NCBI GenBank assembly: GCA_903850425.1 | Contig: CAINLR010000141.1 | Location: 45,296 to 109,295, forward strand | DNA from: an uncultured Verrucomicrobia subdivision 3 bacterium | GTDB lineage: Bacteria; Verrucomicrobiota; Verrucomicrobiia; Limisphaerales; UBA11358 | Reading direction: 5' to 3' | DNA: 64,000 nucleotides | Shown: positions 10,457-64,000 of the stretch, one piece after another | Layout: every line of letters starts with the position of its first letter | How positions within the stretch are numbered: position 1 is the first letter of the stretch | Translations under genes and position numbers: made by a program | The notes under the pieces: model-generated | Told to the model about the DNA's origin: nothing | Databases searched by the model: none | What the model saw: only the letters and a program-made list of their open reading frames with translations

Positions 10457-11148
10457 GCGCGCCGGCCTTGAGTTGAGGTTGCGGCCAAAGGCCGGAGTTG
10501 CGCCCGCCGCTGCTCGGCGCGCTCGATCAAATTCAACGCCTGATCTACGGCCTTGATTGGGACTGAAGCTGTCGCCGATGAAAACTTTTGCGCGTCACAG
10601 GCGCGCAAGAAATCAATCGCCGTCACGGCAAGCTCCGCGCCTATTTGGTCGCGGCCGGAAAGCAGCCGACCGAATTCGGCGGTGGTGAATTCGCCCGCCG
10701 GCAGTTGAAAGGCCGCGATGAAATAATGGCGGACGACCTGAGAGACGCGACTGAGAATCGCGCCGTCCTCCGGCTGCTGTCGCAGGCTTGCCAACGCCTG
10801 GCGAACTTGTTCTTCGGGAGAAATAATGTTTTTTGATTGGGAACGGCCGATCAGCCAGAGGACCAGCGCCATTACAACAATCGCAGCAAGCCCCACTAAA
10901 ATCATAGAACTTGCATGCTGCTCGACGAACGTGGGCGGCAACTCGCCATAAGGTGGCAATAACTTCAACGGGCCACTTTTATCGGCCGCGCCGGTCTGGC
11001 CATGAAGCGGTCGTGTGATAAGAAGAAGCAAAATCATCAAGGGAAACATCCCACAACGAACATCCCACAACGAACATCCACTCAAGCCAAGGCGCGTGGG
11101 CGTTGGCTGTTGGATGTTCGTTGTTGGATGTTGGATGTTTTTCATCAT
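10453..11148 (-). CDS. Small membrane protein in the DUF4381 position of bat operons (alternative start at 11049)
   Basis: It sits between the DUF58 and batA genes. It has one TM helix (MILVGLAAIVVMALVLWLIG) followed by a helical tail. The first 33 codons are read through palindromic element B. An internal MFPLMILLLL start lies at 11049. Confidence 0.55.
   Translation of the reverse strand: MMKNIQHPTTNIQQPTPTRLGLSGCSLWDVRCGMFPLMILLLLITRPLHGQTGAADKSGPLKLLPPYGELPPTFVEQHASSMILVGLAAIVVMALVLWLIGRSQSKNIISPEEQVRQALASLRQQPEDGAILSRVSQVVRHYFIAAFQLPAGEFTTAEFGRLLSGRDQIGAELAVTAIDFLRACDAQKFSSATASVPIKAVDQALNLIERAEQRRAQLRPLAATSTQGRRA
11045..11139. repeat. Palindromic GAT-heptad element B (arms 11045-11080 and 11108-11139)
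   Basis: The left arm is aacatcccacaacgaacatcccacaacgaacatcca and the right arm is tgttggatgttcgttgttggatgttggatgtt. It has the same architecture as element A. Confidence 0.85.
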
Positions 11149-12101: not shown

Positions 12102-12616
12102 TGGGAAACGCAATAAACCCCAGGCAAACACTGTGGTTCTGCGAAGCTTTGCCGTTTGGGCAAACCTGTGCAAAAACCGGCATAACGGGGCAAAGAAGGG
12201 CAAAGAAAGGGGCCAAGGGTTTGCACCCGTTCAATTCCCGATCAGTTGTTTCTGCCGATGACATTTTGCGATATTGTTGGCCGAACGTTGCTATCACGTC
12301 GAGCTTCATTCGGCATATTTTCAGCCATTAAACGACGCGTGTCCACACCGATGCTTTGCATGGCTAAAAACACCGAGAATGAGCTGGTGAGGCACGACAC
12401 AGCCCTCGCCAAAAAATAGCGAGCGGCGGTCTTGCGAGCGCTTGGGCGGAATAGTCTCGATCTTAGCCGGTGCGGAAAGGATCAGACCTGGATTTGCCGC
12501 TTTGGCCGGAAGCGGACCAGCGGCGTGATCTGATCACGCACCGCCTGCTTAATTACGCCCGTGCATTTGCCAGCCGAGCGCTATTTTCACTGGCACACCC
12601 AGATGTCAAATCCCGG

Positions 12617-15600
12617 CTAGGGCGAAAGCCGCACCCGGTAGTAACGGCGACCAGACGAACCGGCATTGGTGTCGTTATATTGAAATGGGGTGGCGGGTGC
12701 GAGATTGGTCAGCAGATCGCTCCAGAGCGACAAATTTGTGCTGGTGGAAATGATGTAGTCCGGCCCGGTGGTGCCGTTAACCTGCAATTTAAACTGCGCG
12801 TTGGTGTAGCCAAGTGCGGTCAATGTGACCGGAGTCAATGGGCGCACGATCACGGAGAATGACTTGCTGTCGCTCAAATGCTGGCTGTTGATTGCCAGAG
12901 GACTATTGTCCGTTACTTGCACCTGAATCGTGTTCGTGGTGTTTGCCAGCGCCGTGGTTGGGCGCCAGTTGAACACCCCTGCAGTGGTGATTCCCGCGCC
13001 GGCAGGCGGACTGATGAGTGAGAATGTCAGGGCATTGGCGGGGAGGTCGGCATCCGTTGCCGTCGCGGTGAAGCTGACGGTCTGGCCTGGATTCACGCTG
13101 AAGTTAGCCAATGCCCCCAGCACCGGAGCGACATTCACTTCGTTGACCACTACGGTAAAGCTATTCGTCGCCGACAAATTGGGCGAACCATTATCAATGA
13201 CCTTCGTCGTGAAAGTATTTGTGCTCGGCCCGTCGGCTTCAGTCGTCGCCCAGGTGATGATGCCATTAGTCGAAATTGTCGCGGCGGTCGGTGCCACCAA
13301 CAGCGAATAGCTCAGCAGATTAGTGGGGATGTCCGCGTCCGTAGCAGTGTTGGTGACGAGGAGTGTTGTCAGTTCGTTGATCATCACTTGGGTTTGCGTG
13401 GGCAGCACCGGGGCGCTGTTCACTTCATTAACGACAATTTGATAACTATTGGTAACACTCAATGATTTCGCATTGATCGCCAGCGGATTCGTATCGGTGA
13501 CGCTGATCGTGACGGTGTTAGTGCTCGGTCCTTGCGCTTCAGTTGGCGTCCAGGTGATGGCGCCACTGGTGGAAACCGCGAGTCCGGACGGACCGGAAAC
13601 CAAGGCAAAGACTAATGGGTTGGAGGGTTGGTCGGCGTCGGTCGCGGTGGCCGTCGCAGAATAGAGGGCCAACTCATTGATATTCGTGTTCGCCGGCAAC
13701 GTCAGGACCGGCGCTACGTTCACCTCATTCACAAAAACAGTAAAGGAGTTGGTCGCGCTCAGGCTTTTGGCATTGACCGCATAAACATTGCTGTCCGTAA
13801 CCACGGTGGTGAAAATATTCGTGCCGGGGCCCTGCGCTTCTGTCGGCGTCCAGGTGATAATGCCGTTCGTGCTGATGACGGCATTGGTTGGCGCCACGAG
13901 CAGGCTGTAAGTCAACGGATTTACCGGCAGATCCGCATCCACCGCCGTGTTGGTCACAACCAGCGTCGTCAATTCGTTGACCGAGAGATTCGTCTGCGTC
14001 GGCAGGACTGGCGCCGTGTTGATCTCATAAACGATGACGCTGAAAGTATTCGTATCACTCAAGCTGGGGGCTCCATTGTCGGCTACTTTCATCGTAAAGG
14101 TGTTGGTGCTGGGCCCTTGCGCTTCATTGGGCGTCCAGGTAATCACACCGGCGGCCGAAAGGCTCGCATTCGTGGGTGCAGCCAGCAGGGTGTAAGTCAA
14201 ACTATCTGCCGGAAGGTCCAGGTCAGTGGCCGTATTGGTCACGACTAATACCGTTAGTTCGTTGATGGCGCGATTAGTTTGCGCCGACAAAATCGGCGCT
14301 GAGTTCAACACGGCGAGAGTGAAGATGGCGGCCCCATAATTTGTGCTCCACGCTTGTTTTGAAGGTAAAAGAAAATTGGTGAATACTCCGGTCTGCGATC
14401 CGTAGGACAGGACGTCAAAAGAATTGCCGGCAATGGGATAGTAACCATTGTTCAAAGTCACGCTGACCGTGCCGGCAAGCGTTGCGCTGCCAGACAGATA
14501 GATTCGACCGTAGTCGCTGAGAGTATTGATGCCAAAATTCAACCGGCCACCCGAGAGGTCATAAATCCCATTCAAACTGATGGTGCCCGCCTGGGCGTCC
14601 AAAGTCCCCAAATTGAAGAATGGAGCATAGATGGTCGCCGTGTCACTGCCGCTGGATTTTCGGACTGTGCCATAGTTTACCACGGAAGGTGTGCCACTAC
14701 CACTGCCGTCGTTATAATAGGCAATTAATGAACCGGTCTGTAAGTCAATCACACCTCTTTCCGCATTCACCAGCAACCCGTTGCCACCACCATAGGCAGA
14801 ATATTGAATGCAGCGGATGCCGCCATTCGTGAGCACGATGGTTCCACGATTGGTAATCACCCCAACGAATTCCAAATAACTACCATTGCCGGGATTTACC
14901 ACCAGCATACCATTCGTCGCCACAGAACCCACGCTGGTGGATGCGATCTGCCCGCTACTCCAAACCAACTGGCCCGCGATGCTGCCGTTAAGCGCCAGGG
15001 TGCCGCCGTTCAGGCCGTTCGTTCCCGCGCCTGTAATCGTGCCATCCATTTCATAGTTATTGGGGTAAGCCACGGTTGCCCCAGGTTCGGCCTGATACAC
15101 GCCGCTGCCATTGCCACCGCCGTTCAGACTGATTGTGCCGGATTGCGCGTCCAACAGGCCGGCATTGTAGAACGGGGCAGCGATGACGGTCGTATCGTTA
15201 CCATTGGATTTACGCACGGTGCCATCATTGACCAGCGAAGGAGTGCCGGTGCCGGTGCCGTCCGTGTAATAGGCAATTAAGGCTCCGGTCTGGAAGTCAA
15301 TCAACCCCCCGGCCGCATTCACCAGCAAGCCATGACCACCACCGTAGCTGGAATATTCGATGCAGCGAATGCCGCCGTTCGTCAGCACGATGGTTCCACG
15401 ATTGGTAATCACCCCAACGAATTCCACATAGCTGCCATTGCCGGGATTTACCGACAACACGGCATTCGTCGCCACCGTCAAGACGCAGCCCGCGCCAATC
15501 TGGCCACCATTCCAATCAAGCCGGCTGGCGATCACAGCATTGGTGCCCGCCAAAACCGCATCGCCCGATAGGATCGCAGCGGCCGTATTCAAGCTCCCGT

Positions 15601-17059
15601 TCACGGCAATCTCGCCATGCACAAAGGTATCCAGGCCAGCACCGGTCAGCGCGCTGCCCACTTGATAATCATTGGCGAAACTCAAGGTGGCTCCGGCCTC
15701 GGCCAAAAACACGCCGTTGCCGCTGCCACCAGCACCACTTAGGCTGAGCGTGCCGGTTTGCACATCCAAGGTTCCGGCATTAAAAAATGGCGGCTTAATG
15801 ACCGTCGTGTCCGCACTGTGGGATTTGCGGATGATCCCATAGTTGACCACCGATGGGGTTCCAATACCGCTGCCGTCCGTATAAAAATCAATGAGCGAAC
15901 CACTCTGCAGATCGATCAGACCGCTCGCGGCATTCACCAATAATCCGCGACCACTTCCATAACTACCGTATTCAATGCAACGAATGCCGCCGTTGGTCAA
16001 CTGGACTCTGCCATAGTTGGTCACCACACCGGAAAATTCCAAGTAGCTGCCGTTACTCGGATTTACCACCATCTGTCCATTGGTCGCGACGGAACCCACG
16101 CTGGCCGCGCTAATCTGCCCGCCAACCCAGAGCAGTTGACCAGTTACCTTGCCATTCAGCGTGAGGTATCCACCGGTTAACACATTGGTTCCAGCCCCGG
16201 CCATTGTGCCGTCCACCTGATAGTTATTCGGATAGACGATCGTCGCCCCCGCCTCGGCTTGATAGACGCCCCCGCCATTGCCGCCGCCATCCAAGCTGAT
16301 GGATCCCGTCTGCGCATCTAAAGTTCCATAATTATACAACGGAGCCTTAATGTCAGTAGTATCGCTGCCATTCGATTTGTGGATGGTGCCGTAATTGACT
16401 ACGGCGGGAATGCCGCTACCGCTGCCGTCCGCGTAATACTCCAAATAGCTGCCGCTTTGCAGGTCAATCAGTCCGCCAGCGTTGTTCATCAGCAAGCCGT
16501 AACCACCGCCGTAGCTGCTCAGTTCAATGCAACGAATGCCGCCATTGGTAATCGCCATGACGCCGCGGTTGGTAATGACGCCTGAGAATTCCAAGTAGCT
16601 GCCCGGGCTAGGATTCACCATCACCAAGCCATTCGTCGCTACCGCCAGAAAACAATCCCCGTTGATCCGGCCGGCGGTCCAATCCATTCGCCCATTAATG
16701 GTGAGCAGGCCGCCACCCGCCAAAACGCCGCCATTGAGCGCGAGGATGCCGTTGGTGTTTACCCGACTGGAGCTGGTCAGGGTCAGACTATTCGCTCCCG
16801 AAGAAAGGGTCTGCTTGCCACTGTTGCCGCCCAGCGTCAGGCTGGCGACGGCGGCGGCAAGATCCAGCGTGACCGAGTAGGTCCCGGCCTGAGTGACCAG
16901 GACATCATTGGTCGGTCCGGGAACCTGATTAGGCGACCAACTGGCTGCATCACTCCAATTCCCCCCGGCCAAGTTCGTCCAAGTGATGCTCGTGGCCCGG
17001 GCGGAATAACTTAAGAGAAGGAAGACGCTAAGAATAACACCTGATAATTGTTTGTGCAT
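12617..17059 (-). CDS. Large secreted repeat adhesin-like protein (4 x ~185-aa Cys-containing repeats, 5 x cadherin-like repeats, C-terminal YYRV module)
   Basis: It has a signal peptide, MHKQLSGVILSVFLLLSYSARA. There are four repeats centred on TNGGIRCIE(Y/L)SSYGGG.GLL.NA.GLID.Q(S/T)G. There are five ~100-aa units of the form APVL..QTN...NEL..L.VTNTATDADLP.N.L.Y.L...P..A.I...G.ITWTPTEAQGPSTN. The C-terminus is ...GRRYYRVRLSP. Confidence 0.8.
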   Translation of the reverse strand: MHKQLSGVILSVFLLLSYSARATSITWTNLAGGNWSDAASWSPNQVPGPTNDVLVTQAGTYSVTLDLAAAVASLTLGGNSGKQTLSSGANSLTLTSSSRVNTNGILALNGGVLAGGGLLTINGRMDWTAGRINGDCFLAVATNGLVMVNPSPGSYLEFSGVITNRGVMAITNGGIRCIELSSYGGGYGLLMNNAGGLIDLQSGSYLEYYADGSGSGIPAVVNYGTIHKSNGSDTTDIKAPLYNYGTLDAQTGSISLDGGGNGGGVYQAEAGATIVYPNNYQVDGTMAGAGTNVLTGGYLTLNGKVTGQLLWVGGQISAASVGSVATNGQMVVNPSNGSYLEFSGVVTNYGRVQLTNGGIRCIEYGSYGSGRGLLVNAASGLIDLQSGSLIDFYTDGSGIGTPSVVNYGIIRKSHSADTTVIKPPFFNAGTLDVQTGTLSLSGAGGSGNGVFLAEAGATLSFANDYQVGSALTGAGLDTFVHGEIAVNGSLNTAAAILSGDAVLAGTNAVIASRLDWNGGQIGAGCVLTVATNAVLSVNPGNGSYVEFVGVITNRGTIVLTNGGIRCIEYSSYGGGHGLLVNAAGGLIDFQTGALIAYYTDGTGTGTPSLVNDGTVRKSNGNDTTVIAAPFYNAGLLDAQSGTISLNGGGNGSGVYQAEPGATVAYPNNYEMDGTITGAGTNGLNGGTLALNGSIAGQLVWSSGQIASTSVGSVATNGMLVVNPGNGSYLEFVGVITNRGTIVLTNGGIRCIQYSAYGGGNGLLVNAERGVIDLQTGSLIAYYNDGSGSGTPSVVNYGTVRKSSGSDTATIYAPFFNLGTLDAQAGTISLNGIYDLSGGRLNFGINTLSDYGRIYLSGSATLAGTVSVTLNNGYYPIAGNSFDVLSYGSQTGVFTNFLLPSKQAWSTNYGAAIFTLAVLNSAPILSAQTNRAINELTVLVVTNTATDLDLPADSLTYTLLAAPTNASLSAAGVITWTPNEAQGPSTNTFTMKVADNGAPSLSDTNTFSVIVYEINTAPVLPTQTNLSVNELTTLVVTNTAVDADLPVNPLTYSLLVAPTNAVISTNGIITWTPTEAQGPGTNIFTTVVTDSNVYAVNAKSLSATNSFTVFVNEVNVAPVLTLPANTNINELALYSATATATDADQPSNPLVFALVSGPSGLAVSTSGAITWTPTEAQGPSTNTVTISVTDTNPLAINAKSLSVTNSYQIVVNEVNSAPVLPTQTQVMINELTTLLVTNTATDADIPTNLLSYSLLVAPTAATISTNGIITWATTEADGPSTNTFTTKVIDNGSPNLSATNSFTVVVNEVNVAPVLGALANFSVNPGQTVSFTATATDADLPANALTFSLISPPAGAGITTAGVFNWRPTTALANTTNTIQVQVTDNSPLAINSQHLSDSKSFSVIVRPLTPVTLTALGYTNAQFKLQVNGTTGPDYIISTSTNLSLWSDLLTNLAPATPFQYNDTNAGSSGRRYYRVRLSP

Positions 17060-42657: not shown

Positions 42658-45576
42658 ATGACGGCGCCGAAGCCCCATCGCTCCGGCGGCCCTAAGCTGA
42701 GATCCGTGAATTCCTGCACATTATCATTCTTGGTTCGCGGCTGTCGGCAACTGGCGTCGGCAATTTGCCTGGGCCTGCTGCTGCCAGTGGCCGCCCCGCC
42801 GTCGCGGGCAGCGGCGGCCCCGGCAATGATATTTTGCAATGGCGGCATGGGCGGCGCCGCCGGGTTGACCGCTGCGCAGATCAGCGGATTGCGCGCGTCG
42901 GGCATGACGACAATGGTCATTTTCAACCTGGGCGTTGCGACCAATGGCGACTTCACGTATGGCGGCACGGTCTGCAGCAACGGCGTCTATGTGGGGCCGT
43001 CGAACTGGGGCTCGCTGCTCAGCCAATGCCGCACCCAGCCATCAAGCATCACGCGAATTGAAATCTGCATCGGCGGTTGGACCGACCCGAGCTGGACCAA
43101 CATCAAGAACCTCATCGCCGCCAACAGCACCAATGTTCTCTACCAAAACTTGCTCGCCTTGAAGAATGCGCTGGGCCTTGATGCGATTGACAACGATGAC
43201 GAAGCGGCCTACGACTCCGCATCCACCATCAAGTTTGGCCAGATGTGCGCCTCGGTTGGCTTGAAGTCTACGCTCTGTCCCTACACCAATCCCGGCTACT
43301 GGCAGGCGGTGAAGACCGGCTTGGGCACCAACTGCGACCAGGTCTATCTGCAATGTTACGATGGCGGCGCGGGCAACAGCCCCGCGACGTGGAACACTTA
43401 CTTCGGTGGATTGAAGGTGGTCACTGGCTATTGGGATTGGGAACGCGACACCACCTTTCTAACCAAAATGCAGCAAGGACAAAACGGTGGCTCCACCGGA
43501 GGCTTTCTGTGGCCTTCCTGCACCGGCTGCAATCCACCCGCCGATGGCAATGAGATGAGCCAGTATGCCGCCTGGATTCTCGACACCTTCAATCCCGTGG
43601 TGCTACCTGTAACGGCGGCGGATGTGGTAGGCAGCCAAGTTACGTTTGCCGTAGCTTTGGGCGGCAATAATACCTATCAGTGGAAGATGATTCGCGGCGG
43701 CACAACGAATACTATTCCCGGCGCAACGAATGCAGCGCTGACCCTGGTGAACCTGCAACTCACAAACACGGCAGTCTATCAAGTCGTCGTCTCGAATACT
43801 GCCGGCCTGGTGGTGAGCAGCCCGGGTTCGCTCACGGTGGCCGGCGCGCCGACCGCGGTGAACAATGTCATCGCCACCTATGCCGGGCAGACCGGCCTGG
43901 GCTATGGCATTCCGTTCACGCCCACCTGGACGCTGGCACCAGCGAGCGCGGTTGCCGGTCAGGCCCCGATCAGCACCAATGGCAACTTTAATCTGGAGAC
44001 CTTTGGCGGTGGTCGGAATGTCAATACTCTGACCGCTGGAGGCAGTCTTACGATCAGCCAGCCCGGAGGTGTGACGGGCACGAACTACCTGACCTGCGGC
44101 AATGGCAGCGGAGCTGGTTCCGCTTTGATCTACACGCTGACCAACACTTCCACCGGCGGTTACAGCGTCACGAACATCACGGTCTATGGTGGTTGGAAGG
44201 ACGCCGGCCGTGATCAGCAGGCTTACGCCGTTTACTATTCCAAGTTGTCCACACCCGCTACCTTCATCCTGCTGGGAAGTGTGAACTACAATCCGGCGAA
44301 TGCTTCCAACGCCCCATCCGCCACGCGGGCCACGCTGACAGCGGCGTCCGGCGCGCTGGCAACCAATGTGGCGGCGGTTAAATTTGACTTTACCAATCCG
44401 GCTTCGGAGAACGGTTACTGTGGCTACGCAGAAATTGCAGTCTATGGCGTGCCGGTCAGTCCGGTCGTGGCCCAGAATACGTTGCCGGCCACGGCGGCGG
44501 ATGTCGTCGGCAGCCAGGTCAGCTTTACGGCGGCATTTGCTTCCGCTAATCCGCTAGCCTACCAGTGGCTGAAGATCAGTGGTGGCACCACGAACCCGGT
44601 TGCCGGTGCGACGAATGCGACGTTGACCCTAACCAATCTTCAATTAACCGACACGGCGAACTACCAACTGCGGGCCACCAATGCGTTTGGCATGGCTTTC
44701 AGCAGTGTGAGTGCGCTCACCGTAAGCAGCGTGCCTGTGGCCGAGAACAACATTATCACTTCCTACGCCGCCCAAACAGGTCTGGGCAGTGCGGCAACCA
44801 ACTTTGTGCCAACGTGGAGTATTGCGCCGGGCAGTTTGATCGCCGGCCAGTCGCCCAGCAGCGTGGGCAGCGGTAGTTTCAGTCTCTACTTGGCAGGTGT
44901 CGTTGCGACGCTGACCGACGGCAGCTTTGGCTGGCTGAACTATTGGCCGAACACCGGGAGCAGTCCATCCGAAGTGACTTGCGGAACCGCCGTCGGCGGT
45001 GCCGGACAGTCGGTGACTTACACGCTGACCGGTTCAGTCAGCGGCTACACGCTCACTAACCTCGTAGTCTATGGCGGGTGGGGCGACGCGGGTCGCGATC
45101 AACAAGCCTATACGGTGTATTACTCCAAAGTAGCGACGCCCACGACTTTCATCCCACTCGGCCCGGTCAACTACAATCCGGCAAATCCTGCGGGCGTTCA
45201 GTCTGCCACCCGGGCGACGCTGACGCCGGTGAACGGAGTCTTGGCCACCAATGTCGCGGCGGTGAAGTTCGATTTCACCACGCCGGCCCCGGAGAATGCC
45301 TATTGCGGCTATTCGGAAATTGATCTTTACGGCTTGCCCACGCCGGTCATGGCAACGAATCCCACGAACATTACATTTCAAATATCAGCCAACGCCCTGC
45401 GGCTCAGTTGGCCGGCTGATCACACGGGTTGGCGGTTGCAGGCGCAAACCAATGACGTGACCCTGGGTTTGGGGACCAACTGGGTAGATGTCGCGGGCGC
45501 GACCGGCACCAACCAGATGGCCCTTCCCATTAATCCGGCGAGCGGCGGCGTCTTTTATCGAATGGTCAACCCGTGA
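42658..45576 (+). CDS. Secreted multidomain protein: GH18-like TIM-barrel domain, then 2 x (Ig-like plus ~200-aa beta-sandwich-like module), then a C-terminal FYRM module (start uncertain; track ORF starts at TTG 42643)
   Basis: The hydrophobic leader is ICLGLLLPVAAPPSRAAAA. GH18-like hallmarks are CIGGWTD and LGLDAIDNDDE, which fits the DxxDxDxE pattern. Ig-like units carry YQWK/YQWLK..GG...GATNA.LTL.NLQ. Two modules carry VYGGW(K/G)DAGRDQQAY. Confidence 0.7.
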   Translation: MTAPKPHRSGGPKLRSVNSCTLSFLVRGCRQLASAICLGLLLPVAAPPSRAAAAPAMIFCNGGMGGAAGLTAAQISGLRASGMTTMVIFNLGVATNGDFTYGGTVCSNGVYVGPSNWGSLLSQCRTQPSSITRIEICIGGWTDPSWTNIKNLIAANSTNVLYQNLLALKNALGLDAIDNDDEAAYDSASTIKFGQMCASVGLKSTLCPYTNPGYWQAVKTGLGTNCDQVYLQCYDGGAGNSPATWNTYFGGLKVVTGYWDWERDTTFLTKMQQGQNGGSTGGFLWPSCTGCNPPADGNEMSQYAAWILDTFNPVVLPVTAADVVGSQVTFAVALGGNNTYQWKMIRGGTTNTIPGATNAALTLVNLQLTNTAVYQVVVSNTAGLVVSSPGSLTVAGAPTAVNNVIATYAGQTGLGYGIPFTPTWTLAPASAVAGQAPISTNGNFNLETFGGGRNVNTLTAGGSLTISQPGGVTGTNYLTCGNGSGAGSALIYTLTNTSTGGYSVTNITVYGGWKDAGRDQQAYAVYYSKLSTPATFILLGSVNYNPANASNAPSATRATLTAASGALATNVAAVKFDFTNPASENGYCGYAEIAVYGVPVSPVVAQNTLPATAADVVGSQVSFTAAFASANPLAYQWLKISGGTTNPVAGATNATLTLTNLQLTDTANYQLRATNAFGMAFSSVSALTVSSVPVAENNIITSYAAQTGLGSAATNFVPTWSIAPGSLIAGQSPSSVGSGSFSLYLAGVVATLTDGSFGWLNYWPNTGSSPSEVTCGTAVGGAGQSVTYTLTGSVSGYTLTNLVVYGGWGDAGRDQQAYTVYYSKVATPTTFIPLGPVNYNPANPAGVQSATRATLTPVNGVLATNVAAVKFDFTTPAPENAYCGYSEIDLYGLPTPVMATNPTNITFQISANALRLSWPADHTGWRLQAQTNDVTLGLGTNWVDVAGATGTNQMALPINPASGGVFYRMVNP

Positions 45577-45592: not shown

Positions 45593-48500
45593 ATGCTATC
45601 TGCTATGAAAAAAGTTTTGTTAGTCAGCCTGCTGGCGGTTGGTGGTCTCGCGGCGATGCTGTGGTGGCATCGGTCGCCAGTCGTGTCCAGGCAATTGCCG
45701 CAGTCATTCCAAGTCTTCGCTGCCGCGAGTGTCTCGCCGACGAATGGGTCTCTGACAGTTACCAAGTCAACGGCGGCTCAACCTGGAGCCCGCGAGATGG
45801 ACCTAGTCGTGAATCCCTACGCCGCCGGACTGCGGGAACCTGGCAAATCCAAACGGAATTGGGAAGCTGACTATATTGCTTCCTTCAAACCGGCAACCGC
45901 CGGTGACCCGGTGCGCTTTGAATTGACCGGCGGCGTCCTGGCCGAAGGTAAAGTAAAGATCATTCAAGTCGAAGGCGGCGAAGTGACTTATGTTTCCGGT
46001 GAGTTGACGGCGCCGGAGACTGGAAAGTTTTTCTTCCTGACGCCTCCGGTCGGTGGCAAGGCGGGCAAAGCCGTCGGCGTGGTGGAATTCCCGGCAAGCA
46101 AGACCGCGTATCGCATCGAACCCACTGGACCCAATGGCGACCCGGAATTATGGCAGCGCCGCATGGATGAAGTCCTTTGTCTGGACATGCCGGAAGCCAA
46201 CCCAGCGATGCTGCAAGCGGCGGCGGCGGCGACCAACGCGATGGAGAACCTTATCCCTTTGCGCCCCGACCAGGTGCCGGATTATGTGCCGAGTTACAAT
46301 GCCAACATAGTCTCGCTGCAGAGTTATCCGGGCTCACCCGCCGTGCTGTTGCTGGATTTCGCGGGAGGCTATACACCGACTTGGGGCGGCGTCACCTATG
46401 GGCGCCCGCCAGTAAGCAACGCCACCATCAAGGATATTTGGAAGCGCGTTGCGGAAGATTACCTGCCATTCAACATCAATGTGACGACCGACAGCAAAGT
46501 TTTTCAGGCCGCCGCGCAAGGTAGTCGCCAGCGTTGTTGTTTCACCACCACCCCGATTACGGCGGCCGGCGTGGCTTATGAAGGCTCGTGGAATTGGGGC
46601 GGCGACACGCCTTGCTGGTCAGTATATTATGTCGGTAAACCGGCGGCTGAAGTGGGTGCGCATGAGCCGGGCCACACGCTGGGTTTGAGCCATGAAACGC
46701 AGGATATTCCCAACGGCACGAATGCTCCAACCCATAACGAGTATTACACCGGCCAAGGTTCCGGTGCCGTCGGCTGGGCGCCCATCATGGGCGCGGCTTA
46801 CTATCAGCCGGTGACCACTTTTGCCAAGGGCGAGTATCAGTATGCCGGAAATTTGGAGGATCAATTGCACACGATTACCACTGCGAACAACAATGTCACC
46901 TACCGGACGGATGACACGGGCAGCGCGCTGGCGACTTCACGCTATCTTGAAGTCTATACCAATGGCACGACGTTTGCCGAAGGCGTGATCGAGCGCACCG
47001 ACGACACGGATGCTTTTCAATTCACCACCACAGGCGGCGCGGTGAACCTGACGGCTAATCCCGTGGGCGACTGGTCAGACCTGGCCATGATGGCCACTTT
47101 GGCGGATGCGATGGATACGGTCATTGCGAGCAATAACCCCCAGACCGTGCTCTCGGCGAACATCACGACTAACTTGCCCGCCGGAACATATACGCTCCGG
47201 GTCACGGGAGCCGGCCGCAACGACCCGGTCCTGACCGGTTTCAGCTCGTATTGCAGCCACGGATATTATTCGGTCACCGGCAATGTGGCCGGGGCGCGTC
47301 AGCCGACCCGCTTGAGCGTGGCCGAACACGCGACCAACAACACCTTGGTGGGTCCGGTTTCCGCTAGCAATCCCAACAGCAGTCCATTGGTCTATGCCAT
47401 CGTCTCGGGCAATACCGGCGCGACGTTTTCCGTGGATAACTCCGGCGTGGTCAACGTCGCGAACAATGCGCTGCTGGATTATTACAAGCTGGCCACCAAC
47501 ACAACCCTGTATGCGGCGCAGTTTGAAGTGTTCATGAACATCACCAACGTGAACAACCCGACCTTGACGGAACTGAACCGGCGAGTGGTGATCGCGGTTC
47601 AGAAATTGTATGCGCCCGTGCCGGCAGCCTTGGTTGCTTCCGTGGACACCAGTTTACGGATTGATCTTTCCTGGGTGGGTGGGATGGAAGCGGCCAGTTA
47701 CAACGTGAAGCGCTCGACGATCCATCTTGGGCCTTACACGACGGTGGCCAGTCCGACGGACACCAGTTACACCGACTCAGGATTAACCAACGGCGTGACC
47801 TATTACTATGTGGTCTCGGCGGTGAACACCAATGGCGAGAGCGCGAATTCAGCGGAATCCAGCGCGGTGGCGCAGTCGGTCGCGGGCTTCGGCTTTGAGG
47901 CGCCGAGCATAGGTTCGGGCAACTATTCTTACAACCCAACGGGAGGTTTCTGGACTTACAGCACCCAGACTGGGAATAGCGGTTCGGGCATCGTGGCGAA
48001 CGGCAGCGGTTTTTCCAATCCCAATGCACCGGAAGGAACGCAGGCTGCCTTTGTCCAGAGCTATGGAAGTATTTCCCAGACTCTATCCGGCTTTACTCCC
48101 GGAACCAGTTATACGATCACTTACTCGGCCGCCCAACGCTCCGGTTCCAGCCAGCACGGTGGGGAGTCTTGGAATGTGGTCATTGATGGCAATGTGATCA
48201 AGGTCAACAGCCCGGGTTCGACCAGTTACACGACTTATACCGCCACGTTCACCGCCACGGCCACGACCCACACGCTCGCCTTTGCCGGCACGGACTTGGC
48301 GGGCGGCGACAACACAGTGTTCGTTGACAACGTGCGTTTCAGCCCCCTCCTGCAACCGGTGGCGGCGGCTGTGGCCTTGACCGTTCCGGCCAATAATGCG
48401 GTGATGGCCGCCGCCGCGCCAGCCAACCTGACTGCTACGGTGACCACCAATGGCAACATTATTAACGGAGTGCAGTTCTACTCTGACACCATCACGTTGC

Positions 48501-51500
48501 TTGGACAGATTACGAATGCCCCTTACACATTCGCGTGGGCGAATGTCACGGCGGGAAGCCATACCGTTTTTGCCCGGGTGCTGTTCGACAACGGCAGCTC
48601 GGCGGATTCTGCCCCGGTCAAACTTACGGTCCTCAATCGCAACCTGAATTTAGGTTTTGAAGTTCCTAGCCTTGGCTCGGGTAACTATTCTTATAACCCC
48701 GGTGGCGGTTCCTGGACCTTCACCGACAGTTCTGGGAATAGTGGTTCGGGCATCGCCGCGAATGGCAGTGGCTTCGGCAATCCCAACGCGCCGCAAGGCA
48801 CCCAGGCGGCCTTGGTGCAAGGTTATGGCAGCATCAGCCAGACGTCGTCCGGCTTTGCGCCGGGCACGAATTACACCATCACTTACTCCGCCGCGCAACG
48901 ATCCGGGACCGCGCAGCATGGGGGCGAATCGTGGAATGTCGCCATTGATAACACGGTGGTCCAGACGAACAATCCGGGGTTGACCAGCTACACAACCTAT
49001 ACCGCCAGCTTCACGGCGTCGGCGGCAACGCATACCCTGTCCTTCGTGGGCACCGACCTGGCTGGCGGCGACAACACCGTCTTCATTGACAACGTAAGTT
49101 TCAATCCGCCGCTCGCGACCCTCTCAACTCCGGACTTAATCACCAATACCTGGCCGGTGACGGCGGTGGATGTGGCGGGCAATCAGGTGGCGTTCATGGC
49201 GACCTTCAGCAGCACCAATTCAACGACCTACCAATGGCAGAAAATTGTTGGCGGACTGATGGCGGACATCGCTGGCGCGACGAACACCATGCTGACTTTG
49301 ACCAATCTGCAAGTGAGTGACACGGCTTCCTATCGTTTGCAGGCCTCAAATAGTTTTGGGGTTGCCGTCAGCACCGCGAGTCCGCTGGCCGTCTCCAATG
49401 TGCCGGCGGCCGTGACGAATGTGCTCATCGCCTATGCCGCCCAAACGGGACTTGGCAGCGCACTCACGAACTTTACTCCCACGTGGCCCTTTGTCCCAGG
49501 GAGTCTGATTGCCGGCCAATCACCCAGCAGCGCCGGCAGCGGCAGCTTTGGTCAGAACATCGGCCTGCTGACCGATGGGTCGTTTGGGTGGATTACTTAC
49601 TGGCCCGGCGTTGGTCTCAGCCCGGCGGAAGTCACCTGTGGCTCCAGCGCGGGGCAGTCAGTCACTTATACTCTCGGCAGTGCTGCTAGCGGTTATAGCA
49701 TTTCCAATATCGTGGTCTATGGCGGCTGGGGTGATGCCGGTCGCGACCAACAGGCTTACACGGTTTCGTATTCCACCGTGGCCAACCCTACAACTTTCAT
49801 CCCGTTGGCGAGTGTTGACTACAACCCCGCGAATCCGGGCGCAGTCCAGTGCGCCACGCGTTCCTCCTTGAAATCTTCCACCACCGGCCCGCTCGCCACC
49901 AACGTCGCGGCTTTAATGTTTGATTTTACAACCCCGGCACCGGAGAACGGCTATTGTGGCTATACGGAAATCGCCGTGTATGGCACGTCACTCGAACCGG
50001 CGGTGATCGTGAACACGCTGCCGGCGACGGCGGCGGATGTCGTAGGCAGCCAGGTCACTTTCACCGCAGCCTTCTCCGGCACGGCTCCCTTAGCTTACCA
50101 ATGGAAGAAGATTAGTGGCGGACTAACTAACAATGTGGCCGGAGCAACCAATGCGACGCTGACGCTGGCCAACCTACAACTGGGTAACACGGCGAGCTAC
50201 CAACTCCAGGCGTCAAATGCCTATGGCGTGGCGGTGAGTTCACCCAGTTCACTCACGGTGTCCAGCGCGCCGGGTGCAGTTAATAATCTGATCGCCTCCT
50301 ATGCCGCGCAAACCGGCTTTGGGGGCAATACATTTTTTCTGCCCACGTGGACAGTCGCGAGCAGCAACAGCTTGATTGCGGGGCTGTCACCCTCCAGTTC
50401 GGCGGGCAACTTCAGCTTGAACACCGGCGGCAGAACCGTGAATTCGCTGACCGCGGGCGACAGTTTGACCATCGGGCCGACCTCCGCCACTGATACCACC
50501 ATTAACTACATCACCTGCGGAAATAGCGGCGGTGCCGGGACGTTAGTGACTTACACCCTGACCGGCTTTACCGCGGGCTACACGCTGACCAATATTACCG
50601 TCTTTGGCGGTTGGAAGGATGCCGGGCGCGATCAGCAGGCCTATACGGTTTCTTATTCCAAGGTAACGGCACCGGCGGCGTTCATTTCGCTGGGGACCGT
50701 CAATTACAATCCGGCTAACCCAGCTTCCGTTCAGTCGGCCACGCGCGCCACCCTGACGGCGGCGAACGGTGTCCTGGCCACAAACGTGGCCGCCGTGAAG
50801 TTTGACTTCACCACGCCAACTTCTGAAAATGGTTACGTTGGCTACAGCGAAATTCTTTTATCCGGAATGCCTTCAGCGCAACCCGTCAAGTGGGCGGTTG
50901 GCAATGGCAACTGGGACAACAGCTCGCCCAACTGGAAGTCGCTCGTCACCGCCGGCACCACTAGTTTTCTGGAAAGCAATCTCACCGCGTTGGACGACAG
51001 TGCGATCGGTTCCAGCCCGATCACCGTGACGCTTACCGGCAATCATGCGCCCAGCGTGCTTACAAATAATTCCACAAAGAACTACTTCCTCGCCGGCAAC
51101 TTCGGTATCACCAATGGCAACTTGGTGAAGAATGGTGTCAGCACGCTGACACTCGCCAATGGCGGGGCGAACAACTTCTCCAGTATCCAAATCAACAATG
51201 GTTCGCTGCAAGTGGGCAACAACGATACCACTGGCAGCTTGGGCGTGGGCAACGTGACCAACAATGGCACGCTGATTTTTAATCGCGCCGACAGCTTGAG
51301 CGTGGGCAACCTCATTGCGGGCACCGGCGCCGTCGTGCAGAGCGGCGGGGGCACGGTAGGATTCAGTGCGGCCAATACTTATTCTGGCCCGACCACCGTC
51401 AGCGCGGGGACCTTGGCTTTGAGCGGCGCGGGAACCATCAGTTCCAGTGCGCAAATTTTGCTGACTGGAGGAGCGGTCATAGATGCTTCAGGTCGCCCGG

Positions 51501-52111
51501 ATCAAACCCTGACTTTGGGCAATGGCCAGGTGCTCAAAGGTAGTGGCAAGGTGCAAGGCTTGTTGAATGCGCTGGCGGGTTCCACCATTAATCCCGGTGA
51601 TACCATTGGCACTTTGACCGTGCAGAGCAATGTGATCCTGCAGGGCACTCTGTTGATGGAATTGAACCGCACCAATGCGCAGGCCGCCGACCAACTGCTC
51701 AGCACTGCCGGCACCATCTCGGCCGGAGGGATCTTGACCGTTACCAATCTAGGCCCGACGCTACAGCCGGGTGACACCTTTCAATTATTTACCCAGCCCG
51801 TCAACGGCTTTGCGACGGTGAACTTGCCCGATGTCGCGCCCAATGCGTGGGTGAATCAATTATCTGACGACGGAACGATTCGCGTGCTTTCTACGGCGTC
51901 CACCAATCTCCTGGCGCAACTGGCCGAAGGAACCCTGACCTTGAGCTGGCCCAGCGATCACATCGGCTGGCGTCTTCAAGTTCAGACCAATGATTTGACC
52001 ACCGGTCTCGGCACGAATTGGTGGGATGTGGCCGGTGCCACGATTACGAACCAGATGTCCTTTCCCATCAGCCCTGACCAAGGCGGCGTCTTTTATCGTT
52101 TGCTCTTTTGA
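45593..52111 (+). CDS. Giant secreted multidomain protein with metzincin-type zinc protease motif, PPC-like, FN3, duplicated CBM-like, Ig plus beta-sandwich modules, PATR repeats and a C-terminal FYRL module
   Basis: Start set at MLSAMKKVLLVSLLAVGGLAA; the 35 upstream track codons overlap the previous gene. The zinc motif is HEPGHTLGLSHE (46661-46696). An FN3-like unit reads LSWVGGMEAASYNVKRS..YYYVVSAVN. There are two ~150-aa repeats of the form GFE.PS.GSGNYSYNP.GG.W....GNSGSGI.ANGSGF. PATR-type repeats read NGVSTLTLANGGANNFSSIQINNGSLQVGN... Confidence 0.75.
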   Translation: MLSAMKKVLLVSLLAVGGLAAMLWWHRSPVVSRQLPQSFQVFAAASVSPTNGSLTVTKSTAAQPGAREMDLVVNPYAAGLREPGKSKRNWEADYIASFKPATAGDPVRFELTGGVLAEGKVKIIQVEGGEVTYVSGELTAPETGKFFFLTPPVGGKAGKAVGVVEFPASKTAYRIEPTGPNGDPELWQRRMDEVLCLDMPEANPAMLQAAAAATNAMENLIPLRPDQVPDYVPSYNANIVSLQSYPGSPAVLLLDFAGGYTPTWGGVTYGRPPVSNATIKDIWKRVAEDYLPFNINVTTDSKVFQAAAQGSRQRCCFTTTPITAAGVAYEGSWNWGGDTPCWSVYYVGKPAAEVGAHEPGHTLGLSHETQDIPNGTNAPTHNEYYTGQGSGAVGWAPIMGAAYYQPVTTFAKGEYQYAGNLEDQLHTITTANNNVTYRTDDTGSALATSRYLEVYTNGTTFAEGVIERTDDTDAFQFTTTGGAVNLTANPVGDWSDLAMMATLADAMDTVIASNNPQTVLSANITTNLPAGTYTLRVTGAGRNDPVLTGFSSYCSHGYYSVTGNVAGARQPTRLSVAEHATNNTLVGPVSASNPNSSPLVYAIVSGNTGATFSVDNSGVVNVANNALLDYYKLATNTTLYAAQFEVFMNITNVNNPTLTELNRRVVIAVQKLYAPVPAALVASVDTSLRIDLSWVGGMEAASYNVKRSTIHLGPYTTVASPTDTSYTDSGLTNGVTYYYVVSAVNTNGESANSAESSAVAQSVAGFGFEAPSIGSGNYSYNPTGGFWTYSTQTGNSGSGIVANGSGFSNPNAPEGTQAAFVQSYGSISQTLSGFTPGTSYTITYSAAQRSGSSQHGGESWNVVIDGNVIKVNSPGSTSYTTYTATFTATATTHTLAFAGTDLAGGDNTVFVDNVRFSPLLQPVAAAVALTVPANNAVMAAAAPANLTATVTTNGNIINGVQFYSDTITLLGQITNAPYTFAWANVTAGSHTVFARVLFDNGSSADSAPVKLTVLNRNLNLGFEVPSLGSGNYSYNPGGGSWTFTDSSGNSGSGIAANGSGFGNPNAPQGTQAALVQGYGSISQTSSGFAPGTNYTITYSAAQRSGTAQHGGESWNVAIDNTVVQTNNPGLTSYTTYTASFTASAATHTLSFVGTDLAGGDNTVFIDNVSFNPPLATLSTPDLITNTWPVTAVDVAGNQVAFMATFSSTNSTTYQWQKIVGGLMADIAGATNTMLTLTNLQVSDTASYRLQASNSFGVAVSTASPLAVSNVPAAVTNVLIAYAAQTGLGSALTNFTPTWPFVPGSLIAGQSPSSAGSGSFGQNIGLLTDGSFGWITYWPGVGLSPAEVTCGSSAGQSVTYTLGSAASGYSISNIVVYGGWGDAGRDQQAYTVSYSTVANPTTFIPLASVDYNPANPGAVQCATRSSLKSSTTGPLATNVAALMFDFTTPAPENGYCGYTEIAVYGTSLEPAVIVNTLPATAADVVGSQVTFTAAFSGTAPLAYQWKKISGGLTNNVAGATNATLTLANLQLGNTASYQLQASNAYGVAVSSPSSLTVSSAPGAVNNLIASYAAQTGFGGNTFFLPTWTVASSNSLIAGLSPSSSAGNFSLNTGGRTVNSLTAGDSLTIGPTSATDTTINYITCGNSGGAGTLVTYTLTGFTAGYTLTNITVFGGWKDAGRDQQAYTVSYSKVTAPAAFISLGTVNYNPANPASVQSATRATLTAANGVLATNVAAVKFDFTTPTSENGYVGYSEILLSGMPSAQPVKWAVGNGNWDNSSPNWKSLVTAGTTSFLESNLTALDDSAIGSSPITVTLTGNHAPSVLTNNSTKNYFLAGNFGITNGNLVKNGVSTLTLANGGANNFSSIQINNGSLQVGNNDTTGSLGVGNVTNNGTLIFNRADSLSVGNLIAGTGAVVQSGGGTVGFSAANTYSGPTTVSAGTLALSGAGTISSSAQILLTGGAVIDASGRPDQTLTLGNGQVLKGSGKVQGLLNALAGSTINPGDTIGTLTVQSNVILQGTLLMELNRTNAQAADQLLSTAGTISAGGILTVTNLGPTLQPGDTFQLFTQPVNGFATVNLPDVAPNAWVNQLSDDGTIRVLSTASTNLLAQLAEGTLTLSWPSDHIGWRLQVQTNDLTTGLGTNWWDVAGATITNQMSFPISPDQGGVFYRLLF

Positions 52112-61850: not shown

Positions 61851-63035
61851 ATGAAAACTTTGTTCGCTTCCACGATCACGCGTTGCAGTTTCCGGCTGGC
61901 GCTGGTTACGATCGCCGCATCCACCTTGACCGCCTCCGCCCAATGGCTGCCAACCGGTCCGCTCGTCGTCCCGCCGGTGCGGATCACCAGCCCGGTCAAC
62001 CACGCCACGTTTTATGCGCCGGTGAACATTCCCATTTTTGCCTTCACCACCCGCGAATATTCGTTGAGCCCGATCGTTCCGACGCTTGGCTCGGTCACGA
62101 ACGTCGAGTTTTTCGCCGGCACGAATGATCTGGGTGCCGGCTTCAACCTCGGCGCGTCCGGTTCACCTTTCGCGTTGCGGCCCATCCCGGCCATCTACGG
62201 CAATATCACTTGGGGATCATCCCTCACGCGGCTCGGCAATGTTTATTGCCTGACCTGGACCAACGCCGCTCCGGGCGCGGTCGCCTTGACCGCCGTGGCC
62301 AAAGGTCCGGCCGGCTACTGCGTCACATCCGCGCCGGTGAACATCACCATCTCCACCTCGCCCACCAACACCAATCCGACCGCGCTGGTAAGCATTTACG
62401 CCACCGATCCGATTGCCATCGCCGGCACGAATGCCTATGTCTGGCGCGGCGTGACCAACGTGACGCCGGCGTGGACGAACTGGAATCCCAGCGTGTTCCG
62501 CTGGTTCACCAATTGGGGACCGAAGAACGCGCTGTTCACGGTGCAACGCCTGGGCAATGCCAACAGCGATTTGACGGTGCGCTATCGTATCGGCGGCACG
62601 GCCAGCAACGGCGTGGACTACGCCACTTTGCCCGGCTCGGTGACCGTGCCCGCCGGCGCGGCTTACACGCTCATTCCCATTGTGCCGATTGACAACGGCG
62701 TCACGAATCGCAACAAAACCGTGGTGCTGACGCTGCTGGCCGCCACCAACATGCCAGCGGATTATCTGCTGCGACCGCCCACCCAGGCCGCCGCGCTGAT
62801 CATAGAAAATGGAATTCGTCCCGCGTCCGCGCTGCTGTCCGGCGGCGGTTTTCATCTCAACGCCACCGGCCCGGACGGCGCGTGGTTCTACGTCGAGTAT
62901 TCCACCGATTTCGTCAACTGGACGACGGCCAGCACCAACCAGGTGTTCCAAGGTTCCATTGACTTCATTGACCCCGATACCACGAGCCATCCGAACTGTT
63001 TCTATCGCGCGGTGCCGCTGCCCGCGTCGCCGTAG
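61851..63035 (+). CDS. Secreted protein with a Calx-beta-like domain and a C-terminal FYRA module
   Basis: Start at MKTLFASTITRCSFRLALVTIAASTLTASA. The Calx-beta-like block is LTVRYRIGGTASNGVDYATLPGSVTVPAGAAYTLIPIVPIDNG. The C-terminus is ..FVNWTTAST...HPNCFYRAVPLPASP. Confidence 0.65.
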   Translation: MKTLFASTITRCSFRLALVTIAASTLTASAQWLPTGPLVVPPVRITSPVNHATFYAPVNIPIFAFTTREYSLSPIVPTLGSVTNVEFFAGTNDLGAGFNLGASGSPFALRPIPAIYGNITWGSSLTRLGNVYCLTWTNAAPGAVALTAVAKGPAGYCVTSAPVNITISTSPTNTNPTALVSIYATDPIAIAGTNAYVWRGVTNVTPAWTNWNPSVFRWFTNWGPKNALFTVQRLGNANSDLTVRYRIGGTASNGVDYATLPGSVTVPAGAAYTLIPIVPIDNGVTNRNKTVVLTLLAATNMPADYLLRPPTQAAALIIENGIRPASALLSGGGFHLNATGPDGAWFYVEYSTDFVNWTTASTNQVFQGSIDFIDPDTTSHPNCFYRAVPLPASP

Positions 63036-63095: not shown

Positions 63096-63800
63096 TCAGT
63101 GCGGCACTTTGGAAGCCATGTAGCGAACCACCGCCTCGGTGCGGGAACTGACATGGAGTTTTTCAAACACGTGTTTCAGGTGGCTGCACACGGTATCAAT
63201 GCTGATCTCCAATTTGTCGGCGATGAGCTTGTTCGAGTAGCCTTGCGAGAGCAGGACGAGGATCTGTTCTTCTCTCACTGACAGGCGCACGGATTCATCG
63301 CGCGCCTTGGCCTTGCGCCGGAACGACTCGATGACGCGCCGGGCAATCTGACTGGTCATGGGCGCGCCTCCACCCAACACATCAAGCAGGGCGATGCGCA
63401 AATCCGCCGGCTTGGTGCGTTTCAGCAGGTAACCGTCGGCACCCGCTTCGAGCGCGAGAAAGACCAGTTCCTGGTCGTCCATGGCGGTGAGGATGACGAT
63501 CTGGACCTCCGGCAGCAGCGCCTTGAGGCGCACGGTGCATTCAATGCCGGACATGCGGGGCAGGAAAATGTCCATCAGGACGACGTCGGGGTTTTCCTGC
63601 GGAATCAGCCGGATCGCCTCTTCGCCGGTGGTGCAGGCGCAAATGCAGGTGAAATCGGGAAACGAGTTGATCAGCTTGATCCAGCTCTCGCGGACTTTCG
63701 GCTGGTCTTCCACCAACGCCACTTTGAGGGCCTTTTTACGGGCGGATTCAGCGGCATGACTGAAGCTCGCCTTGATTGGTTTAACACTTGGTGGGGTCAT
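63096..63800 (-). CDS. NarL/LuxR-family response regulator
   Basis: Start set at MTPPSV. The REC domain contains VALVEDQP...DVVLMDIFLPRMSG. The C-terminal HTH is LSVREEQILVLLSQGYSNKLIADKLEISIDTVCSHLKHVFEKLHV. Confidence 0.88.
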   Translation of the reverse strand: MTPPSVKPIKASFSHAAESARKKALKVALVEDQPKVRESWIKLINSFPDFTCICACTTGEEAIRLIPQENPDVVLMDIFLPRMSGIECTVRLKALLPEVQIVILTAMDDQELVFLALEAGADGYLLKRTKPADLRIALLDVLGGGAPMTSQIARRVIESFRRKAKARDESVRLSVREEQILVLLSQGYSNKLIADKLEISIDTVCSHLKHVFEKLHVSSRTEAVVRYMASKVPH

Positions 63801-64000
63801 GAATTTGTGAGGGGTCTTTTGGCGGCAGGTTTTTCGGATCGCTGGTCGGCTCGGCAAAGGGCCGGGAGTTCCACAGCCACCTCCACAGATAGCGGCGCTG
63901 ATGCTTGAAGGGAATTCCAAATTCTATGCGGCAGCCTTGGCCCGGGGCGCTGGTCACCTGACAGCTCCCGCCCATCTCGTGCATACGCTGGTTGATGTTG
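63781..64000 (-). CDS. Sensor histidine kinase, C-terminal end only (rest beyond the right window edge)
   Basis: The frame is open to the window edge. ..NINQRMHEMGGSCQVTSAPGQGCRIEFGIPF matches the end of NarX/DegS-type HATPase domains. It overlaps the downstream response-regulator start by ~20 nt. Confidence 0.6.
   Translation of the reverse strand, partial: NINQRMHEMGGSCQVTSAPGQGCRIEFGIPFKHQRRYLWRWLWNSRPFAEPTSDPKNLPPKDPSQIHDPTKC

Follow-up and report, generated by a model that had tools for sequence, protein, structure and literature searches.

How do the giant exported proteins of subdivision 3 Verrucomicrobiota reach the cell surface, or stay on it? These bacteria are abundant polysaccharide degraders of soil and freshwater, and their genomes are rich in such proteins. 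The question is raised here by a stretch of 64,000 nucleotides (the window) from an uncultured Verrucomicrobia subdivision 3 bacterium of the Limisphaerales (GenBank assembly GCA_903850425.1, contig CAINLR010000141.1, positions 45,296 to 109,295 of the forward strand). Four exported proteins of the window, A to D, end in a similar C-terminal module, and an original prediction made from the DNA took this module for a candidate sorting or anchoring signal. The analysis indicated that, in this lineage, the module obligatorily forms the last domain, in a single copy, of large surface or adhesin-like proteins and enzymes that are exported by Sec. Its fold and its remote homology place it in the fibronectin type III (FN3) superfamily. 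We tentatively propose that it serves the surface retention or sorting of its cargo, and we give this reading a probability of roughly 0.4. The genes and modules are as follows, with lengths in amino acids (aa) and E-values from profile hidden Markov models (HMMs).

12617-17059, minus strand: gene A, encoding a 1480-aa exported protein whose C-terminus is at 12617-12620
12620-12826, minus strand: module of protein A, generic subtype (iterated generic HMM E 7.8e-13; superfamily HMM E 3e-17)
42658-45576, plus strand: gene B (open reading frame, ORF, 42643/42658-45576), encoding an exported protein with two units of immunoglobulin (Ig) domain plus beta-sandwich, then the module
45364-45573, plus strand: module of protein B (B/C-family HMM E 3e-43), with the stop codon at 45574-45576
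45593-52111, plus strand: gene C, 16 nt downstream of the adjacent gene B and co-directional with it
51899-52108, plus strand: module of protein C (HMM E 2e-43; 63% identity to the B tail)
61851-63035, plus strand: gene D, encoding an exported protein of 394 aa in which the module follows a Calx-beta domain
62823-63032, plus strand: module of protein D, generic subtype (iterated generic HMM E 5.2e-16; superfamily HMM E 7e-23)

All four protein ends quoted in the original prediction are present. Immediately before the stop codon, B reads ...GGVFYRMVNP, C reads ...GGVFYRLLF, A reads ...GRRYYRVRLSP and D reads ...NCFYRAVPLPASP; eight database relatives have the same ending as D. An aromatic-Tyr-Arg-aliphatic motif had been placed 2-8 residues from the stop, and the measured distances agree with this (2 residues in C, 3 in B, 4 in A and 7 in D). 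The motif, searched as [FY]YR[LMVA] within the last 12 residues, occurs in four ORFs of the window against 0.1 expected from the background rate. When 79 related loci were added to the window, 95 of 4864 ORFs had it where 1.6 were expected. Ten ORFs with the motif were missed by the HMM, and these also resemble divergent family members. The four proteins carry no PEP-CTERM signal, LPXTG motif or autotransporter barrel, and protein C carries PATR repeats. These predicted features were confirmed by Pfam and NCBIfam and by reading of the tails, in which direct inspection found no LPXTG motif, transmembrane (TM) helix or basic tail. At the other end, judged by eye, the hydrophobic segment LASAICLGLLLPVAA...SRA of protein B is probably a signal peptide. 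The N-termini of A (MHKQLSGVILSVFLLLSYSARA) and D (MKTLF...ALVTIAASTLTASAQ) resemble signal peptides, and that of C (MLSAMKKVLLVSLLAVGGLAA) resembles a signal peptide or a signal anchor.

The proteins differ in what precedes the module. Protein A, for which the plus-strand reading is noise and the minus-strand translation gives the 1480-aa product, is composed of four repeats of about 190 aa with an NGGIRCI motif, five or more cadherin/Big_9-like domains and the module. The repeats lie at aa ~130-800 (14807-16546, minus strand), each with the pattern TNGGIRCIE..SYGGG.GLL.N, and give only a weak match to DUF7244 (E 1e-3, below the cutoff). Protein B matches Ig_3, I-set and K319L-like PKD in Pfam. 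Protein C is ordered as a HExxH protease-like region, fn3, two DUF642 domains, two units of Ig plus sandwich, PATR repeats and, directly after these, the module. Its zinc-metalloprotease-like motif HEPGHTLGLSHE is in the N-terminal region at aa 357-368 (46661-46696, plus strand), where no Pfam or NCBIfam family matches, and may mark an unclassified metzincin-like peptidase domain. A protein identical to D is present on eight metagenome contigs. The cargo had been described as otherwise unrelated. This holds for A and D, which outside the tail are unrelated to B/C and to each other, but not for B and C, which upstream of the tail are 59% identical over 587 aa, the stretch of both units of Ig plus sandwich. 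The duplicated block spans 43606-45342 in B (aa 317-895) and 49154-50875 in C (aa 1188-1761). Each unit consists of an Ig_3/I-set domain and a beta-sandwich of about 200 aa that ends in VAAVKFDFT.P..ENGYCGY.EI..YG and has no Pfam family. In C, the PATR region is inserted between the B-like block and the tail.

Are the four tails one family or several? Those of B and C are closely related (phmmer E 5e-27). The tails of A and D are not significantly similar in pairwise comparison (E about 1.5), though their alignment is in register, and neither pairwise nor window-only HMM searches linked A/D to B/C. Word-index protein searches returned only short contig-edge fragments, which were used for the profiles and not for architecture. 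Two narrow families were obtained from these fragments, B/C with 307 matches and A/D with 10, and their first profile-profile comparison by hhalign was suggestive only (P 4.7e-4). A generic family was built when the A/D profile was run iteratively against 1 Mb of genomic DNA from related loci. It has the pattern G..l.l..G..g..Y.v..STNL..p..W..v.TN.....G.f.ft.......p..FYRL..P, followed by the stop, and takes in intermediates such as 'LALSWNTQTGLVYQVQYSTNL..NW'. When its 23-member alignment, which includes A and D, was compared with the B/C profile, hhalign gave a probability of 94.3% and an E-value of 1e-7 over the whole module. Models of the B and A tails obtained with AlphaFold have an identical order of six strands. 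We conclude that the four tails are one superfamily with two grades of conservation, in line with the similar beta-rich tail originally predicted. The generic form (A, D) is loosely conserved. The Limisphaerales subtype (B, C) is tightly conserved around WPxDHxGWRLQxQTN, and 19 of its positions are invariant or nearly so, among them the polar D, H, Q, Q, T, N, N, N and R.

The fold was examined with the same models. The B tail (45328-45573) was modelled with a predicted local distance difference test score (pLDDT) of 88.9 and strands A, B, C, C', E and F, and the six-stranded A tail with a pLDDT of 87.6. In Foldseek searches against the PDB, the best matches of the B tail were IFNAR1, Tencon and an FN3 domain of integrin beta4. 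Those of the A tail were FN3con and loop-grafted FN3 scaffolds (template modelling score, TM-score, 0.64-0.73; root-mean-square deviation 2.3-3.8 Å), and the pectate lyases PelI and Pel3 were matched as well, at their FN3 domain. Over both models the TM-scores were 0.45-0.73 and the probabilities reached 1.0. The E-values were weak (≥0.035), so the module has no close solved relative. A sequence-profile search of the PDB gave nothing significant; its best match, to light-harvesting proteins (E 0.022), was judged spurious. The module profile does match canonical FN3 arrays in two database proteins (P0158, P0181), with per-domain E-values from 3e-9 to 8e-4, most of them near 1e-5. In these alignments the FYR(L/V) of the module falls on the canonical F strand, T-Y-x-Y-R-V. 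An F strand with a tyrosine corner is an established feature of the FN3 fold. Therefore, the last conserved element of the module is read as this strand. Canonical FN3 domains go on with A-x-N-x-x-G-x-S and a G strand, whereas the module stops there. We are highly confident that the module is a divergent FN3-type beta-sandwich of about 65 residues that lacks the FG loop and the G strand. With these two elements absent, 2-8 residues follow the arginine before the end of the protein. The FYR ending, proposed as a terminal sorting signal, is thus the F strand of a folded domain.

No model of Pfam-A or NCBIfam detects the module in the four window proteins (E≤0.1), and none detects it in 36 further carriers. 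Even in ten tandem-copy representatives made almost wholly of the module, neither library detected it at E≤1. Local sub-threshold matches to F5/8 type C occurred only at a Y-x-x-x-S-x-D-x-x-W stretch; no stretch passed and the candidate was rejected. The literature that was searched gave no description of the module. It is an undescribed, very large FN3-like family, and its strictly terminal use is specific to the lineage sample.

This sample was the six-frame translation of the 79 fetched loci and the window, 1.06 Mb of Limisphaerales DNA. In one-genome-per-species GTDB contigs, the B/C-specific pattern [STN]WPxDH[TI]GW gave 510 matching stretches, and 504 of them were confirmed as genomic copies. 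Among the best 80 of the 504, almost all are from metagenome-assembled genomes (MAGs) labelled Verrucomicrobia subdivision 3, Limisphaerales or Pedosphaera. The copies are numerous and dispersed, since one MAG supplies 15 of these 80 and three copies lie at 0.65, 2.08 and 3.24 Mb along a single 3.3-Mb contig. In the lineage sample, every B/C-type match (92/92) ends within 5 residues of the stop, and every superfamily match (113/113) is a single copy that ends within 8 residues of it. A looser iterated profile found in the lineage loci just two internal look-alikes and two domains resembling canonical FN3. The figure of 113 is a lower bound, because the superfamily HMM misses a divergent family at E≤1e-3. 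This secreted family is present in 13 loci (L039:5985-9512, L061:9343-12744 and relatives) as stop-to-stop ORFs of about 480-1180 aa, whose still more divergent module ends at the stop in 'LQLNWSYGTLQTATNVTGPY.DVTN....QQFYRVMQN'. Several B/C-module copies are in MAGs labelled Candidatus Sulfotelmatobacter, Candidatus Acidiferrales or Bifidobacterium (L025, L036, L037, L040, L079 (DATJTK01), L038, L066 (DATHQS01), L028 (CAZQNQ01)), and these MAGs are probably mis-binned or mislabelled.

The wider family was collected with HMMER, which was run exhaustively over 1.84 billion proteins representing 50%-identity clusters. At E≤1e-3 there were 28,050 matching proteins, and at E≤1e-10 there were 3,808; cluster look-ups returned almost no taxonomy. 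Architecture was analysed in the best 147 of the 28,050 representatives. A copy ends within 8 residues of the protein end in 128 of these 147, and in all 32 single-copy representatives the module is at the extreme C-terminus. Tandem arrays nearly always reach the very end of the protein, and their internal copies pass through a short Pro-rich linker into the next A strand (P0154, P0159, P0162, P0163, P0165). In three proteins with internal FN3-like copies (P0191, P0223, P0276), the ends resemble the type IX secretion (T9SS) C-terminal domain (CTD) ('...GAYWLQVGANAKKQTFKILKK'). Therefore, outside the Verrucomicrobiota, relatives of the module coexist with downstream sorting domains.

The carriers in the lineage are large and varied. 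The median length of the complete ones is 1339 aa, and 62 of the 85 exceed 1000 aa. As for the suggested enrichment on signal-peptide proteins, a strongly hydrophobic N-terminus was scored in 67 of the 85 carriers and in 155 of 379 control long ORFs, the score being crude and the control set including spurious ORFs. Several carriers below the threshold have obvious signal peptides by eye. Pfam annotation of 36 carriers gave PATR in 18, Ig_3 in 14, I-set in 13, Laminin_G_3 in 9, Big_7 in 4, DUF642 in 3, glycoside hydrolase (GH) family GH76 in 2, a GH catalytic core in 1, and others; a peptidase is also among the cargo types. Autotransporter-associated repeats were found by NCBIfam in 17 of the 36. 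Ig, PKD and fn3 domains of carrier proteins are internal, unlike the module. The fn3 matches in C (aa 685-757), P0159, P0165 and P0168 are other, canonical domains and never the module itself. Among 82 B/C-type carriers, 99% of the tail pairs align with a median identity of 59.5%, against 21% of pairs for the 150 aa upstream and 10% for aa 151-400 upstream. The tail is far better conserved than the cargo.

Some cargo types argue for a possible anchoring role. In NCBIfam naming, choice-of-anchor-type families are those whose members end in varied sorting or anchoring signals. A 'choice-of-anchor' GloVer repeat protein (P0154; TIGR03803, 193 bits) ends in the module, and so does a T5SS/PEP-CTERM-associated-repeat protein (P0262; TIGR04393, 218 bits; T5SS, type V secretion system). 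P0163 also ends in it, with a choice-of-anchor C domain that is sub-threshold. These cases support the conclusion that the module stands in for known anchors: elsewhere, the same cargo types have PEP-CTERM, autotransporter barrels or other anchors at their ends.

In the reading that we favour, the cargo would first be exported by Sec. A common partner in the envelope, a protein or a glycan, would then recognise the folded terminal domain or bind it non-covalently, and this would retain or sort the cargo at the cell surface. On related cargo the module would take the slot of PEP-CTERM, autotransporter barrel or T9SS CTD, and it probably stays attached. Candidate contact sites are the exposed edge of the F strand and the invariant polar residues of the B/C subtype; more speculatively, the free sheet edge left by the missing G strand could serve as the docking site. 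Non-covalent retention is favoured over a cleaved tag because repeats that bind the wall or surface through avidity, such as those of the SLH, LysM and choline-binding kinds, typically form tandem arrays at protein ends. We know of no tandem arrays of T9SS CTDs. As for the sorting or anchoring role named in the original prediction, the diverse exported cargo, the dispersed paralogs, the conservation of the tail and the replacement of anchors argue for it, but no co-occurring machinery, no cleavage site and no sign of processing was found in the loci.

Several observations weigh against retention or sorting, and some of them suit a simpler explanation. Among the best 147 representatives, 115 hold 2-11 tandem copies, and of the 431 domain matches 303 are internal and 128 terminal, so the predicted extreme-C-terminal location stands for the lineage and not for the wider family. 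The aromatic-aromatic-Arg motif is kept in 151 of 198 internal copies and in 84 of 96 terminal ones. Since internal tandem copies keep the motif, the module is not a signal of an intrinsically terminal kind but a domain that can be repeated. Little support came from a test of whether terminal copies are of another kind than internal ones; the two are barely distinguishable, the terminal copy being best-scoring in 46 of 96 proteins against 37% expected. Some relatives with internal copies then carry apparent T9SS CTDs or TM anchors. In the window, exported glycoside hydrolases (GH78, GH92, GH141-like) lack the module, and signal peptides were judged by the crude score and by eye only. The co-occurring outer-membrane or peptidase genes that had been anticipated did not appear, no such neighbour being recurrent in the 79 loci when all ORFs of at least 150 aa were clustered, a procedure dominated by shadow ORFs overlapping the carriers. 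This negative is weak because the substrates of many-to-one sorting systems are usually unlinked to their machinery. FN3-like domains are, moreover, generic spacers and binding modules. The evidence for sorting is circumstantial, and the internal tandem copies weaken a simple 'export tag' reading. It is quite possible that the module is an ordinary FN3-like spacer or a carbohydrate- or protein-binding domain, which became terminal by descent and by 3'-end domain shuffling among paralogous giant genes. Fold and profile tie it to FN3, internal arrays share its motif and are barely distinguishable from terminal copies, B and C are paralogous beyond the tail, and the recurrent neighbours include no machinery. 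What such a domain does not readily explain is that the lineage copies are without exception terminal and single while Ig, PKD and fn3 domains are internal, that the tail is far more conserved than the adjoining cargo, down to invariant polar residues, and that known anchors are replaced on anchor-variable cargo families.

A bolder form of the retention proposal, which we regard as doubtful, is that Limisphaerales and other Verrucomicrobiota have an undescribed pathway for surface sorting or attachment, in which the module, especially the WPxDHxGWRLQxQTN subtype, would be the domain that is recognised; a dedicated partner in the envelope would dock on the F edge, free of a G strand, by beta-augmentation. 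If true, this would account for the way in which PATR giants without a barrel come to the cell surface and remain there, and in function the module would be the counterpart of the T9SS CTD or PEP-CTERM. A cleavable outer-membrane translocation signal, removed after export by an undescribed translocon or sortase of the Verrucomicrobiota in the manner of a T9SS CTD, is improbable. The anatomy is T9SS-like in that diverse cargo with a signal peptide ends in a beta-sandwich of about 70 aa and each genome has many paralogs, and the T9SS CTD is itself an Ig-like sandwich (PMC11285876). The module, however, matches neither Por_Secre_tail nor TIGR04183, has a six-strand FN3 topology and not 3+4, and belongs to the Verrucomicrobiota; tandem copies are foreign to translocation tags, upstream of the module no conserved motif for cleavage can be seen, and no machinery was found in the loci. 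We consider it equally improbable that the module acts after export as a C-terminal folding nucleus or cap, autochaperone-like, for long PATR beta-helical and Ig-array passengers. Barrel-less PATR proteins make up half of the carriers, and in C the module directly follows PATR; yet many carriers have no beta-helix (cadherin-like A, Calx-beta D, Ig plus sandwich B, LamG, GH76), and tandem arrays of a cap are hard to rationalise. Chance or compositional likeness of the C-termini, without a common domain, could be suspected from the non-significant pairwise comparisons of A with D and of A/D with B/C. It is excluded by the motif excess in the window and the related loci, the hhalign E-value of 1e-7, two confident models with the same fold and the 28,050 database matches.

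Two kinds of genes do recur beside the carriers. Propeller-type HisKA_3 sensor kinases with LuxR-type response regulators are neighbours in 19 of the 79 loci (for example L023:3-3245 and L023:3235-4026). The same pair adjoins D in the window, the LuxR-type response regulator being at 63096-63920 on the minus strand. This suggests that the giant surface proteins are under dedicated two-component control. Prepilin-type N-methylation/cleavage proteins ('GFTLIELLVVIAIIAILAAILLP') are encoded directly up- or downstream of module genes in six loci (L006:293-1279, L017:338-1267, L058:1601-2440, L060:2217-3056, L045:8171-9043, L054:8177-9178). This adjacency may be due to chance, the family being very abundant in these genomes. 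Elsewhere in the window, a single ORF at 2658-4355 (minus strand) fuses MoaE, the large subunit of molybdopterin synthase, to a complete MoeA (domains I-IV), and a separate MoCF_biosynth (MogA/MoaB-like) gene is beside it at 1725-2207. A Bat-like aerotolerance operon at 5229-12203 (minus strand), immediately downstream of gene A on the same strand, contains DUF58, DUF4381-like, two BatA/VWA genes, a TPR gene and BatD.

The HMM, the defined domain boundary and the conserved candidate contact residues provide a handle for annotation, phylogenetic profiling and localisation work. The sorting hypothesis, if true, matters for the cell-surface biology of the Verrucomicrobia. If the module is merely a structural FN3 variant, annotation is still improved, and caution is advised against reading the FYR end as a linear sorting motif.

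Among known systems, the T9SS CTD had been named in the original prediction as a parallel, and the module does not belong to it. Neither Por_Secre_tail (PF18962) nor TIGR04183 matches the four proteins (hmmscan E≤0.1) or the 36 carriers. T9SS CTDs are absent from the Foldseek top-50 lists of both models, which contain FN3 domains, and no genes for T9SS machinery (PorV, PorU, SprA and others) recur in the 79 loci. The likeness is one of layout: a small beta-sandwich at the extreme C-terminus, diverse and often very large Sec-exported cargo, and many paralogs per genome. As described in PMC11285876, the CTD is an Ig-like sandwich of seven strands in a 3+4 arrangement, whereas both models of the module have six strands in FN3 topology. 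The CTD belongs to the Bacteroidota and the module to the Verrucomicrobiota, and the module occurs in tandem copies. By sequence and by strand count the module is not a T9SS CTD; a functional analogy to it is possible.

With canonical FN3 (PF00041) the module shares a conserved Trp (strand B), an aromatic residue (strand C) and an F strand of the form Tyr-x-Arg/Val with its tyrosine corner, and it may likewise form tandem arrays with Pro-rich linkers. It differs in its length (about 65 against about 90 aa), in having six strands against the seven strands A-G, in the missing FG loop and G strand, and in its S/T-T-N-L...W...T-N motifs. It also escapes the PF00041 model, even at E≤1 in tandem proteins, and prefers the extreme C-terminus, without exception in the Limisphaerales sample. 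PEP-CTERM signals end exported PATR and T5SS/PEP-CTERM-associated-repeat proteins of Planctomycetes-Verrucomicrobia-Chlamydiae (PVC) bacteria, a cargo class on which the module also occurs (P0262). A PEP-CTERM signal consists of a short motif, a TM helix and a basic tail, whereas the module is a folded domain. The four window proteins lack the signal, their tails ending in the FYR strand with no NCBIfam match (TIGR02595). A regular-expression search of the same loci found true PEP-CTERM tails on eight other, small proteins (109-547 aa). The likeness to autotransporters is in the PATR (TIGR02601) beta-strand repeats in half of the carriers. Pfam and NCBIfam scans of the four proteins and the 36 carriers gave PATR only and no barrel family, and the FN3-like module occupies the position of the barrel.

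The ligands of the SLH, LysM, choline-binding and GW modules are peptidoglycan or secondary wall polymers, and the bacteria concerned are mostly Gram-positive. These modules have no kinship with the FN3-like module in sequence or fold. In layout, the terminal tandem arrays resemble those of SLH, LysM and choline-binding repeats. Like all of these wall-binding modules, the FN3-like module is terminal, is present in one to several tandem copies, is carried by unrelated exported cargo and is better conserved than the cargo that it ends.

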